DNA of 64,000 nt, taken from sequence record OL631478.1; one strand, 5' to 3'. Below are positions 60,883-62,361 of the stretch, in pieces. The translations under genes and the position numbers were made by a program. The notes beneath the pieces are model-generated. The model worked only from the letters and a program-made list of their open reading frames with translations. It did not search any database and had not been told where the DNA came from. The stretch is from Escherichia phage ECML-1. Every line of letters starts with the position of its first letter. The stretch's first letter is position 1.

Positions 60883-60959
60883 GCACCTATAGCCCAATTG
60901 GTAGAGGCAGCAGACTTAGAATCTGCTCAGTGTGAGTTCGAATCTCTCTAGGTGTACCA
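60883..60959 (+). tRNA. tRNA-Leu(TAG), short variable arm
   Basis: Acceptor gcaccta/taggtgt, anticodon arm gcaga-cttagaa-tctgc, 5 nt variable loop, discriminator A, CCA encoded. Confidence 0.55.
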
Positions 60960-60966
60960 AATTAAT

Positions 60967-61042
60967 GCAGGTGTAGCAAAATGGTTATGCGGCTGACTCT
61001 TAATCAGTAAGACGATGGGTTCAATTCCCTCCACCTGTACCA
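60967..61042 (+). tRNA. tRNA-Lys(CTT)
   Basis: Acceptor gcaggtg/cacctgt, anticodon loop ctcttaa, T-loop TTCAATT, CCA encoded. Confidence 0.55.
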
Positions 61043-61048
61043 AACATT

Positions 61049-61124
61049 GGGGATGTAGTTTACATGGTTAAAACATAAGTTTTGCAAACTTAAGTACAGG
61101 GTTCAATTCCCTGCTTCTCCACCA
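61049..61124 (+). tRNA. tRNA-Ala(TGC)
   Basis: Anticodon arm taagt-tttgcaa-actta, G3-U70 wobble pair (Ala identity element), CCA encoded. Confidence 0.6.
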
Positions 61125-61130
61125 ATTAGT

Positions 61131-61205
61131 GCATCCATAGTTTAAACGGGAAAATTACAGTCTTCCAAACTGAGGTTGAGGGTTCGATTCCCTCTGGATG
61201 CTCCA
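61131..61205 (+). tRNA. tRNA-Gly(TCC)
   Basis: Acceptor gcatcca/tggatgc, anticodon loop cttccaa, T-arm gaggg-ttcgatt-ccctc, CCA encoded. Confidence 0.65.
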
Positions 61206-61212
61206 AATTAAT

Positions 61213-61288
61213 GCTCCTATCGTATAATTGGCTATTACGGTTGCCTTGTAAGCAACTTATCAGGGTTCGAATCCTTGTGGGAGCACCA
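61213..61288 (+). tRNA. tRNA-Thr(TGT)
   Basis: Anticodon arm gttgc-cttgtaa-gcaac, T-arm caggg-ttcgaat-ccttg, CCA encoded. Confidence 0.65.
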
Positions 61289-61384
61289 ATTCAGAGGTCA
61301 AGTGAAAGACCGCTTTGAGTCAACTGAAGACCGTAACAAATTCCACGGAGTTGAGTTAGCGGCACAACTCCAGACCTCTTTCAT

Positions 61385-61459
61385 ACTCGCTTAGTTTATA
61401 TGGTAAAACATCACCCTTACAAGATGAAGAAAAAGGTTCAAGTCCTTTAGTGAGCACCA
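61385..61459 (+). tRNA. tRNA-Val(TAC)
   Basis: D-stem gttt/aaac, anticodon loop cttacaa, T-arm aaagg-ttcaagt-ccttt, CCA encoded; first acceptor pair is an A-C mismatch. Confidence 0.55.
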
Positions 61460-61460
61460 T

Positions 61461-61538
61461 GTTCCAGTATCCCAATTGGCAGAGGATGCAAGCTCAAACC
61501 TTGTACTAGTGACGGTTCGAATCCGTCTTGGAACACCA
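61461..61538 (+). tRNA. tRNA-Leu(CAA), short variable arm
   Basis: Acceptor gttccag/ttggaac, anticodon arm gcaag-ctcaaac-cttgt, T-arm gacgg-ttcgaat-ccgtc, discriminator A, CCA encoded. Confidence 0.55.
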
Positions 61539-61543
61539 ATTTT

Positions 61544-61619
61544 GCAGGATTAGTTCAAATGGACAGAGTAACAGTCTACGAAGCTGTTAATAGGGGTTCG
61601 AATCCCTTATCCTGCGCCA
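61544..61619 (+). tRNA. tRNA-Arg(ACG)
   Basis: Acceptor gcaggat/atcctgc, anticodon arm acagt-ctacgaa-gctgt, CCA encoded. Confidence 0.65.
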
Positions 61620-61638
61620 ATTTAAAGAGGCTATTTAG

Positions 61639-62196
61639 ATGAGATATTTGAAGTATGCTTCATGGATTTTCTTAGCTTTGTTAGAGCCATTTGCAGCAAT
61701 CTTAGCAGTTATCTTAGCACCTTTTGTAGTTCCATTCTACAGTGAGAAGAAAGGACACTTACCTTTCGGGTTCAGATGGATGGAGACATATGACAACCCA
61801 ATTGATGGTGATGAAGGTCACGTTAAAAGATGGGCTAATATTAGATGGATTGGTAAACTAGGCGTCTACATGCAAAGAGTCGGATGGCTCTGGAGAAACA
61901 AAGCTTATAACTTCTCTTACCATGTATTAGGAAGAGATGTAAAAGATGTTACTAAGTGGAAAGGTAATATCAACGTAAGTTCTGACCCCGAAGATAATCA
62001 GACAGGTTATCTCCTAATGTGGAACAGTAATGCTTGGGGATTATTCGCTTTTATCCCATCAATTAAAATCTTTGGTAAACAATTTTACTGGAGAATTTAT
62101 ATTGGATGGAAACTAAAAAGTGTTGTCCCAGAAGAAAGAGCATTCTCAAGGGAAAGAGTTATGTTGGCATTCTTTATTCATCCACTGAGAAAGTAA
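61639..62196 (+). CDS. hypothetical membrane protein embedded in the tRNA array
   Basis: 185 aa; N-terminal hydrophobic segments (IFLALLEPFAAILAVILAPFVVPF). Confidence 0.45.
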   Translation: MRYLKYASWIFLALLEPFAAILAVILAPFVVPFYSEKKGHLPFGFRWMETYDNPIDGDEGHVKRWANIRWIGKLGVYMQRVGWLWRNKAYNFSYHVLGRDVKDVTKWKGNINVSSDPEDNQTGYLLMWNSNAWGLFAFIPSIKIFGKQFYWRIYIGWKLKSVVPEERAFSRERVMLAFFIHPLRK

Positions 62197-62204
62197 AGAT
62201 TTAA

Positions 62205-62280
62205 AGGGGATTAGTTTACAAGGTTAAAACCTCGGTCTTTGAAATCGAAGAAGTTGGTTCAATTCCAACATCCCCCGCCA
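62205..62280 (+). tRNA. tRNA-Gln(TTG)
   Basis: Anticodon arm tcggt-ctttgaa-atcga, T-arm gttgg-ttcaatt-ccaac, CCA encoded; first acceptor pair is an A-C mismatch. Confidence 0.55.
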
Positions 62281-62282
62281 AT

Positions 62283-62361
62283 GCTCCATTACTCCAATTG
62301 GCAGAGAGGCCAGACTTAAAATCTGTGTTATGTATCGGTTCGAATCCGATATGGAGTACCA
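62283..62361 (+). tRNA. tRNA-Leu(TAA), short variable arm
   Basis: Acceptor gctccat/atggagt, anticodon loop cttaaaa, T-arm atcgg-ttcgaat-ccgat, discriminator A, CCA encoded. Confidence 0.5.

Follow-up and report, generated by a model that had tools for sequence, protein, structure and literature searches.

Leucine tRNA genes with short variable loops in the tRNA array of Escherichia phage ECML-1

In a stretch of 64,000 nucleotides (nt) from Escherichia phage ECML-1 (sequence record OL631478.1), here called the window, three tRNA genes with the leucine anticodons UAG, CAA and UAA are observed that fold as type I tRNAs, each with a short variable loop. The reading that I prefer, with a probability of roughly 85%, is that these are three functional phage type I leucine tRNAs, charged with leucine by the host's leucyl-tRNA synthetase (LeuRS) and decoding leucine codons. 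What is directly observed are the three genes and their folding as type I tRNAs, the complete set of leucine identity elements, their conservation and the codon bias of the phage, and charging by host LeuRS is most likely what follows from the published identity rules of E. coli and from the leucine insertion reported for a tRNA derived from phage OSYSP. The three genes and their parts are:

60883-60959, plus strand: tRNA-Leu(UAG), type I, 77 nt (ARAGORN, Rfam 58.9 bits, arm parse); anticodon 60917-60919, variable loop TCAGT 60927-60931, A73 60956, CCA 60957-60959
61461-61538, plus strand: tRNA-Leu(CAA), type I, 78 nt (ARAGORN, Rfam 43.6 bits); anticodon 61495-61497, variable loop ACTAGT 61505-61510, A73 61535, CCA 61536-61538
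62283-62361, plus strand: tRNA-Leu(UAA), type I, 79 nt (ARAGORN, Rfam 47.5 bits); anticodon 62317-62319, variable loop GTTATGT 62327-62333, A73 62358, CCA 62359-62361

All three score above the gathering score of 29 bits of the Rfam tRNA family (RF00005), with E-values from 4e-11 to 6e-7. The initial annotation, made by eye, had placed class I cloverleafs with the anticodons TAG, CAA and TAA at 60883, 61461 and 62283, with lengths of 77-79 nt, variable loops of 5-7 nt and A73; the ARAGORN calls are identical in coordinates and anticodons, and together with the arm parse they reproduce this fold, without a differing anticodon or isotype and without an overlooked long arm. ARAGORN does detect long arms where these are present, as the tRNA-Tyr and the two tRNA-Ser of the same array were called long-armed. 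The three tRNA-Leu have one parse in common: an acceptor stem of 7 base pairs (bp), U8, a D arm (stem 3 bp, loop 11 nt), an anticodon arm (stem 5 bp, loop 7 nt), the variable loop (5 nt in the UAG, 6 nt in the CAA and 7 nt in the UAA species, according to the ARAGORN structure strings), a 5-bp T stem with the loop TTCGAAT, A73 and an encoded CCA. Arm by arm, with the variable loop in brackets, they read:

UAG: GCACCTA TA GCCCAATTGGTAGAGGCA GCAGA CTTAGAA TCTGC [TCAGT] GTGAG TTCGAAT CTCTC TAGGTGT A CCA
CAA: GTTCCAG TA TCCCAATTGGCAGAGGAT GCAAG CTCAAAC CTTGT [ACTAGT] GACGG TTCGAAT CCGTC TTGGAAC A CCA
UAA: GCTCCAT TA CTCCAATTGGCAGAGAGG CCAGA CTTAAAA TCTGT [GTTATGT] ATCGG TTCGAAT CCGAT ATGGAGT A CCA

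A variable region of more than 10 nt with an extra stem-loop, by which class II is recognised, is present in none of them, and a variable region of at least 10 nt cannot fit within a total of 77-79 nt including the CCA. All three have what defines a type I tRNALeu, namely a leucine anticodon, A73 and a variable loop of about 5 nt that includes nt 48. The acceptor stem is closed by G1.U72 in the UAG species (60883/60955) and the UAA species (62283/62357), not in the CAA species, and the T stem of the UAG species contains a single U.U mismatch, at position 50-64. Among the three genes the D stem covaries (10-25 is G-C, U-A and C-G; 11-24 is C-G, C-G and U-A), with C13.A22 constant.

The leucine identity set of E. 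coli comprises A73, A14 (with U8), A15-U48, G18G19 (with U55 and C56), A20a and U54-A58 (PMC9976931, PMC6614811). This set is found in full in all three phage genes; each of the short variable loops ends in U48, and the T loop UUCGAAU can form G18-U55, G19-C56 and U54-A58 in every one. In published selections A15-U48, G18G19 and A20a were essential, and neither the sequence nor the folding of the arm correlated with activity (PMC9976931). E. coli tRNALeu variants without anticodon and variable arms were still active if A73 and the D/T-loop pairs were intact, the variable arm is dispensable for E. coli LeuRS, and the anticodon is not read (PMC9976931). For the copies of the three genes in the related phage Sf14, a 2025 study reports tRNAscan-SE isotype scores in which the leucine model comes out on top (67.4, 49.1 and 60.2). 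The suggestion of the initial annotation that leucine identity would rest on A73 and core features is thus borne out by a complete identity set, an arm published as dispensable and the leading leucine scores in Sf14.

As host set I read leuW (UAG), leuX (CAA), leuZ (UAA) and leuQPV (CAG) of E. coli K-12. These four are 85-87 nt long and of type II, with a variable arm of 12-15 nt. The premise of the initial annotation that bacterial tRNA-Leu are class II therefore stands for the four E. coli isoacceptors; as a general statement it fails, given the native type I genes of Actinomycetota and those of phages. Host and phage tRNAs are alike in the D arm, a 3-bp stem with the 11-nt loop NAAUUGGUAGA (ARAGORN). 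The D loop is NAAUUGGYAGA in both and differs in position 13 only, being G/A-AAUUGGUAGA in the host (AAUCGGUAGA in two genes) and C-AAUUGGYAGA in the phage. A73, U8, A14, A15, G18G19, A20a, U48, the T loop and three anticodons are common to both as well, whereas the phage genes have C13 where the host has G or A, and G1.U72 occurs in two of the three phage genes and in none of the four host genes. The stems are unrelated, and with the anticodon and variable loop set aside the window genes share 42-64% identity with the four E. coli tRNALeu; they are thus not recently deleted host genes, and a recent deletion of the arm from a host gene is rejected as their origin. When the UAG gene, the sole query, was compared by blastn with 5,426 complete E. 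coli genomes, no match was found. In the anticodon loop of the UAG species (60915-60921) positions 32, 37 and 38 differ from leuW, with A37 in place of the host G37, which is presumably an m1G37 site, and in the CAA species (loop 61493-61499) C38 interrupts the run A36-A37-A38. I take A37 of the UAG species and C38 of the CAA species to be positions relevant to anticodon-loop modification.

Felix O1-like myoviruses (Felixounavirus, Ounavirinae), which infect E. coli and Salmonella, match the window region at 95-98% identity, and their reference records carry 'tRNA-Leu (x3)' at the matching places. As tRNA-Leu, these genes have been annotated for about 20 years; the 2010 genome paper on Felix O1 names the three and is silent on their shape, and the word 'variable' is absent from the 2025 study on Sf14. 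A comparison with related phages, as proposed in the initial annotation, shows the type I fold also in Felix O1, Sf14, SUSP2, Arno18 and Ep030. The Sf14 copies differ from the window genes in one or two bases, the UAG pair at two D-loop bases. The tRNA-Leu(CAA) is the same gene in Felix O1, Sf14 and SUSP2, with one differing base in the variable loop, and its orthologue in Erwinia phage Ep030 shows compensatory changes in three stems. More generally, the tRNALeu of Pectobacterium phage Arno18 and of Ep030 are of type I, their acceptor, anticodon and T stems differing with compensation and their D arm being retained. The tRNA-Leu(UAA) is 100% identical in 215 phage records, while the surrounding region varies by 3-10%.

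The UAG slot of Ounavirinae arrays is occupied by either of two unrelated type I alleles, with 42% identity when the anticodon and variable loop are left aside. Sf14 has the window allele, and the other is found in Felix O1 (L001 3987-4064), SUSP2 (L204 3928-4005) and Arno18 (L202 4390-4467); this Felix O1-type allele resembles the tRNA-Leu(UAG) of phage OSYSP (65% identity, with an identical T arm). The Felix-type tRNA-Leu(UAA) is also matched at 100% by 62026-62103 of GU169904.1, a record named Staphylococcus phage SA1, which suggests that this record holds Felix O1-like sequence.

The fold was further examined in wider sets of type I tRNALeu, with the caveat that the sequences had been collected by a program that seeks cloverleafs. 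Among 395 unique type I tRNALeu, 96.8% of the stem pairs are canonical, against 59.4% with shuffled partners. A gap-free alignment of 60 maximally diverse members, the window UAG gene included, gives 98.1% pairing cells against 54.7% after shuffling, and none of 500 shuffles reaches the observed value. In these 60, all 20 of the stem pairs are changed on both sides, and registers slid out of phase pair at 34-45%.

The activity of type I tRNALeu in E. coli is best illustrated by OSYSP (MF402939.1), a T5-like phage in whose whole genome ARAGORN finds exactly two tRNA-Leu, both of type I and 77 nt long. Like those of the window, they come from an E. coli phage and have a 5-nt variable loop (GUUUU) that ends in U, A73, a Leu-type D loop and a CCA. 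An anticodon-swapped 'bacteriophage-derived (MF402939.1) tRNALeu(CGA)' reads TCG as leucine in E. coli (PMC13596443), and in a second, independent laboratory viral leucyl-tRNAs were active, no better than the host ones (PMC12269064). As OSYSP has type I tRNALeu only, the published leucine insertion implies that a type I phage tRNALeu donates leucine in E. coli. The phage nevertheless belongs to a different, T5-like family; its D loop is ...GGCAUA against ...GGYAGA in the window, and its tRNALeu are closer to the Felix O1 UAG allele than to the window allele. In the interval between tRNA-Ser and tRNA-Ala, which is syntenic in the closely related phages T5 and OSYSP, the tRNALeu is of type II and 85 nt long in T5 (L205 17625-17709) and of type I and 77 nt long in OSYSP (L449 3693-3769).

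Two other systems are comparable in part. Minimal armless E. coli tRNALeu (Larkin et al. 2002, via PMC9976931) are leucylated via A73 and the D/T-loop pairs; these are laboratory constructs, some of them also without an anticodon arm, whereas the phage genes are natural, selected, and keep a loop of 5-7 nt with U48. Animal mitochondrial tRNALeu are of type I, have A73 and A14 as identity elements and are charged without a long arm (PMC6614811, PMC9976931), but by a different synthetase and with a loosened core; published bacterial cross-charging is limited, and no sequence kinship is claimed.

A number of observations weigh against charging of the phage tRNAs by the host enzyme, or against their importance. 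E. coli LeuRS failed to charge the type I tRNALeu(CAA) of Streptomyces coelicolor and was described as an enzyme that 'only charges type II' (Fan et al. 2019, PMC6614811). This is the one bacterial type I tRNALeu tested with E. coli LeuRS, and it has C48 (PMC6614811) and thus is without the A15-U48 element that the phage genes keep, as their U48 pairs with A15 like that of E. coli. It is moreover served by its own LeuRS with a special leucine-specific domain, whereas the phage genes must use the enterobacterial enzyme; for S. coelicolor, the published minimum of the variable loop for good charging is 5 nt including position 48. An unpaired nucleotide at the base of the arm, 47n, is a published identity feature (PMC6614811) and cannot exist in armless phage tRNALeu; elsewhere the 47n/arm feature is reported to be dispensable (PMC9976931). 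The C-terminal domain of E. coli LeuRS touches the arm at 47f-47i, and the leucine-specific domain favours a large variable loop (PMC6614811), and the affinity of LeuRS for armless tRNAs may be lower. Leucylation of a phage type I tRNALeu is published for the OSYSP-derived tRNA, not for the window genes; the OSYSP tRNALeu are 50-61% identical to those of the window outside the anticodon and variable loop and have G13 rather than C13, and the exact sequence of the engineered viral tRNALeu was not found in the published supplements. In the related phage Bas63 the tRNA genes are mostly dispensable on four laboratory hosts, so that any benefit is likely conditional. Finally, in minimum free energy folding the cloverleaf is the minimum for the UAG species only, with weak z-scores of -0.5 to -1.6; as these tRNAs are AT-rich and were folded unmodified, such folding is uninformative, and covariation was preferred instead.

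The codon usage of the phage is compatible with a supply of leucine tRNAs. In 63 window open reading frames (ORFs), leucine codons make up 1203 of 15015 codons (about 8%), distributed over TTA (24%), CTT (28%), CTG (16%), TTG (15%), CTA (10%) and CTC (7%). In E. coli, CTG alone accounts for about 50% of the leucine codons (Kazusa table); the G+C content of the phage is 39%. The 2025 Sf14 study found the same direction for the codons TTA and CTA, not for TTG. That Felixounavirus tRNAs are functional in E. coli is known from the phages REP5-12 of this genus, which infect the recoded E. coli Syn61-delta-3, as expression of a viral tRNA-Ser(UGA) is the means by which phages infect this strain.

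The sequence of events that I propose would be as follows. The three tRNALeu would be transcribed together with the array of 25 genes in which they lie, and matured with their encoded CCA. Host LeuRS would then read A73 and the corner formed by the D and T loops (U8-A14, A15-U48, G18G19, A20a, U54-A58), and neither the anticodon nor a long arm. The UAA species would decode UUA and UUG, the CAA species UUG, and the UAG species CUA and probably other CUN codons. These codons are much commoner in the 39% G+C phage than in its host. If loss of the arm costs little in LeuRS recognition, a mobile armless lineage could persist, which seems the most economical reading. tRNA-Ser and tRNA-Tyr retain the long arm, which the seryl- and tyrosyl-tRNA synthetases (SerRS and TyrRS) require; alone among the class II tRNAs of phage arrays, that for leucine, the arm of which goes unused by its synthetase, loses it.

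This pattern extends well beyond the window. Type I tRNALeu were selected in IMG/VR with a pattern that combines a Leu-type D loop with a leucine anticodon and a T loop a short distance away, which gave at least 120 stretches. Among the matches listed, 200 of 231 tRNA-Leu in these loci are at most 80 nt long, against 82 of 83 tRNA-Ser and 32 of 35 tRNA-Tyr with at least 82 nt. A pattern open to both types returned 59 short and 67 long viral matches with a gap between them, and the viral variable loops are strictly bimodal in length, with either 4-7 or 10-20 nt. A sample unbiased for tRNA-Leu was obtained from 118 viral loci recruited via a tRNA-Ser(UGA)-type pattern; here 13 of 52 tRNA-Leu (25%, with one or two doubtful cases) have loops of 5-6 nt, and the long arm is present in 147 of 147 tRNA-Ser and 23 of 24 tRNA-Tyr. 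Viral loci with type I tRNALeu have mostly 30-45% G+C, and 4 of 98 low-GC loci are Felix-like.

With the type I pattern, GTDB genomes yielded at least 197 type I tRNA-Leu (ARAGORN, among the matches listed), 58 of these in loci with no more than two tRNAs and 106 in dense arrays. In Actinomycetota the type I tRNALeu (UAA, UAG, CAA and CAG) lie beside genes for an AhpC-type peroxiredoxin, RNase PH and Ham1, for pyruvate kinase, an ANTAR response regulator and DNA polymerase I, or for Ppx-GppA; examples among the loci L210-L329 are L213 5252-5302, L282 3829-3879 and L237 1580-1630. As such housekeeping neighbourhoods are conserved across genera, type I tRNALeu are native in Actinomycetota, and they are more widespread there than the single S. 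coelicolor CAA case in the literature. A73 is present in 208 of 208 viral and 195 of 197 GTDB type I tRNALeu (among the matches listed), the variable loop ends in U in about 98%, and C13.A22 is found in 339 of 395. Of the viral tRNALeu, about a third have the G1.U72 pair, among type I (71 of 208) and type II (37 of 129) alike. The D-loop motif was also considered as a leucine-specific signature; it is Leu-enriched, but as the loci were recruited with that very motif, I attach little weight to it.

How these genes came to be armless can be explained in different ways. To the possibility that they were inherited from an old, horizontally moving type I lineage of phages and some bacteria, which persists because LeuRS tolerates it, I would give about even odds. 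Outside the anticodon and variable loop, type I genes have a mean identity of 0.79 to their five nearest type I relatives and of 0.69 to type II, and type II genes show the reverse; the samples were partly recruited by a D-loop pattern, so the similarity within type I is inflated. The two types are thus partly separate sequence populations, which suggests old moving lineages rather than repeated recent deletions. The window genes are 71-85% identical to the nearest type I genes outside the Ounavirinae, against 42-64% to E. coli tRNALeu. The UAG gene aligns without gaps, at 79-83% identity, with tRNA-Leu of Bixzunavirus mycobacteriophages and of Streptomyces phage Peebs (74-76 nt, type I). Since tRNAs are short and constrained, however, identities of 70-85% say little about descent. 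The two unrelated type I alleles in one Ounavirinae array slot, and the exchange of type II in T5 for type I in its relative OSYSP at the same site, fit moving lineages as well. Inheritance of this kind is compatible with the reading as functional leucine tRNAs, and it does not exclude selection.

Alternatively, the loss of the arm could be an adaptation against host defence, in that leucine-carrying type I tRNAs would escape nucleases or nucleotidyltransferase toxins that recognise the arms of class II tRNAs, so that leucine decoding would survive an attack on host tRNALeu. I consider this unlikely. Defences and toxins that act on class II tRNAs in this way are known: Septu cuts tRNATyr in its variable loop (PMC13096335), PtuAB of Retron-Eco7 degrades tRNATyr (PMC12673091), AbiEii and MenT3 prefer long-armed class II tRNAs, and phage tRNAs have been proposed to dodge anticodon nucleases via loop changes (PMC10264068). 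The differences between the UAG species and leuW at loop positions 32, 37 and 38 would fit the last of these, and type I forms about a quarter of viral tRNALeu and was not found in E. coli, either among the four isoacceptors or in the blastn search with the UAG gene. However, no enterobacterial defence aimed at tRNALeu via the arm was found in the literature, and the known targets, tRNA-Tyr and tRNA-Ser, stay long-armed in the same phage, as would be expected from the need of their synthetases for it. Type I tRNALeu is, moreover, a normal chromosomal gene in Actinomycetota, so that no defence rationale is needed. The broader proposition, in which type I tRNALeu, about a quarter of those of viruses and present even in enterobacterial phages, characterise phage arrays widely without having been remarked on, and in which their arm was shed under selection by arm-recognising defences or toxins, I regard as similarly doubtful.

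An altered identity, which the initial annotation had left open, is very improbable. The three tRNAs would then read leucine codons carrying another amino acid, or remain uncharged and act as decoys or regulators. The hallmark long arm of bacterial tRNALeu is indeed absent, G1.U72 is unusual in comparison with the four E. coli tRNALeu, and the leucine score of the Sf14 UAG species (67.4) is barely above those for Ile2 (65.7) and Lys (63.4) in the 2025 study. Yet the leucine identity set is complete; G3:U70 for the alanyl-tRNA synthetase and a long arm for SerRS or TyrRS are both absent, and the anticodons are wrong for the anticodon-dependent synthetases (rules from PMC9976931). Miscoding of about 8% of the codons would be lethal to the phage proteome, and the OSYSP type I tRNALeu is published as a leucine donor in E. 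coli (PMC13596443).

That the genes are decaying pseudogenes, former type II tRNALeu that lost their function with the arm, is less credible still: the mostly non-essential tRNA genes of Bas63 in the laboratory, the U.U mismatch in the UAG T stem and aberrant tRNA-like sequences in the same array (e.g. 59393-59471) could be taken that way, but arm lengths are perfect, and identity set and CCA retained, independently in all three genes, the UAA gene is unchanged (100% identity) in 215 genomes with 3-10% divergence elsewhere, distant relatives show compensatory substitutions, and random deletion would not yield loop lengths that are bimodal (4-7 or at least 10 nt, none between).

The array in which the three genes lie, and the further features considered around it, are the following:

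57663-57783, plus strand: two sigma-70-like promoter matches, TTGACA-17-TAATAT and TTGACA-18-TAAAGT, directly upstream of the first tRNA; consensus only
57810-63556, plus strand: tRNA array, 25 ARAGORN tRNA genes, interrupted by HNH endonuclease and other small ORFs
58311-58398, plus strand: tRNA-Tyr(GUA), 88 nt, class II, 15-nt variable region (ARAGORN and parse)
59160-59188, plus strand: third sigma-70-like promoter match; consensus only
60070-60159, plus strand: tRNA-Ser(UGA), 90 nt, class II, 20-nt variable region (ARAGORN and parse)
63384-63476, plus strand: tRNA-Ser(GCU), 93 nt, class II, 21-nt variable region (ARAGORN and parse)
63719-63736, plus strand: downstream of the last tRNA, a terminator-like hairpin with a T run after it; consensus match only

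In the promoter scan of the array region the total number of matches was not above chance. One HNH endonuclease ORF (60429-60881) stops one base ahead of the tRNA-Leu(UAG). A phage-encoded LeuRS was looked for among the ORFs within and adjacent to the array, which encode HNH endonucleases, DUF7338, DUF7217 and a DUF2828/DUF7788 protein; the scan covered those ORFs only, and the candidate was rejected.

Two tRNA-like sequences of the array are not called by ARAGORN. The first, at 59393-59471 (Rfam tRNA, 31.7 bits), has a good acceptor stem, a T arm, A73, CCA and the anticodon loop CUUCUAA (Arg UCU); it is without a D arm, and 23 nt separate its anticodon and T arms. Its sequence is kept in Felix O1, and Sf14 has a canonical 77-nt tRNA-Arg(UCU) at that place. 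The second, at about 59962-60057, has the acceptor halves AUGGGAC/GUCCCAU, followed by G and CCA, and a T-arm-like GGGGUUCAACUCCUC; its D region is oversized, a 9-nt loop has CCA at the site of a Trp anticodon, and its match to the Rfam tRNA-Sec family is weak (23 bits, E = 0.5).

Within 57972-58766 there are also four repeated intergenic elements (about 57978-58062, 58146-58222, 58541-58620 and 58628-58764), which have in common a 5'-terminal box CAGAAGACCnnUUACAGCAA and a 3'-terminal nnGGUCUGG. These end boxes pair as a closing stem with compensatory changes (AA/UU vs GU/AC), and the fourth element encloses a tRNA-like module (T arm, acceptor-like hairpin, D arm), as in YrlA-type Y RNAs. For the repeats, no Y RNA family was among the Rfam hits in 57000-64000 at E-values up to 1. 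The ORF at 56229-57644, immediately upstream of the repeats and the array, encodes the DUF2828 and DUF7788 protein, for which no PDB sequence match was found. Its Bas63 homologue, gp130, is Ro60-like and counters the Ppl defence (PMC11482910), and the authors of that study guessed that some of the Bas63 'tRNAs' are Y RNAs.

It is already known that type I tRNALeu exist in mitochondria and in S. coelicolor, that the phage genes are tRNA-Leu, and that the arm is dispensable for E. coli LeuRS. In the literature searched on Felix O1, Sf14, tRNA arrays and phage tRNAs, I found no statement that phage tRNALeu can be of type I. Within that literature it appears to be new that Felix O1-like enterobacterial phages carry type I tRNALeu only, that about a quarter of viral tRNALeu genes are of type I, that the engineered viral tRNALeu comes from a phage with type I tRNALeu only, and that type I tRNALeu are core genes of Actinomycetota.

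The three genes are ordinary phage cargo, and it is their architecture that is of interest. As a natural experiment, the array is in line with the identity biochemistry of the past 30 years: tRNALeu alone loses the arm, and tRNA-Ser and tRNA-Tyr keep it. The predicted charging would contradict, for E. coli, the published generalisation that LeuRS serves type II tRNALeu only, and with an armless phage version at hand the role of the long arm of tRNALeu becomes a question that can be tested in a model host. The viral tRNALeu underpins swapped-code, virus-resistant E. coli, and the tRNALeu genes of its donor phage are all armless. The census suggests that type I tRNALeu are under-reported by textbooks and annotation pipelines, in phages and in Actinomycetota. 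If the arm was indeed shed under selection, tRNA architecture, beyond the anticodon loop, would be a battleground between phage and host.

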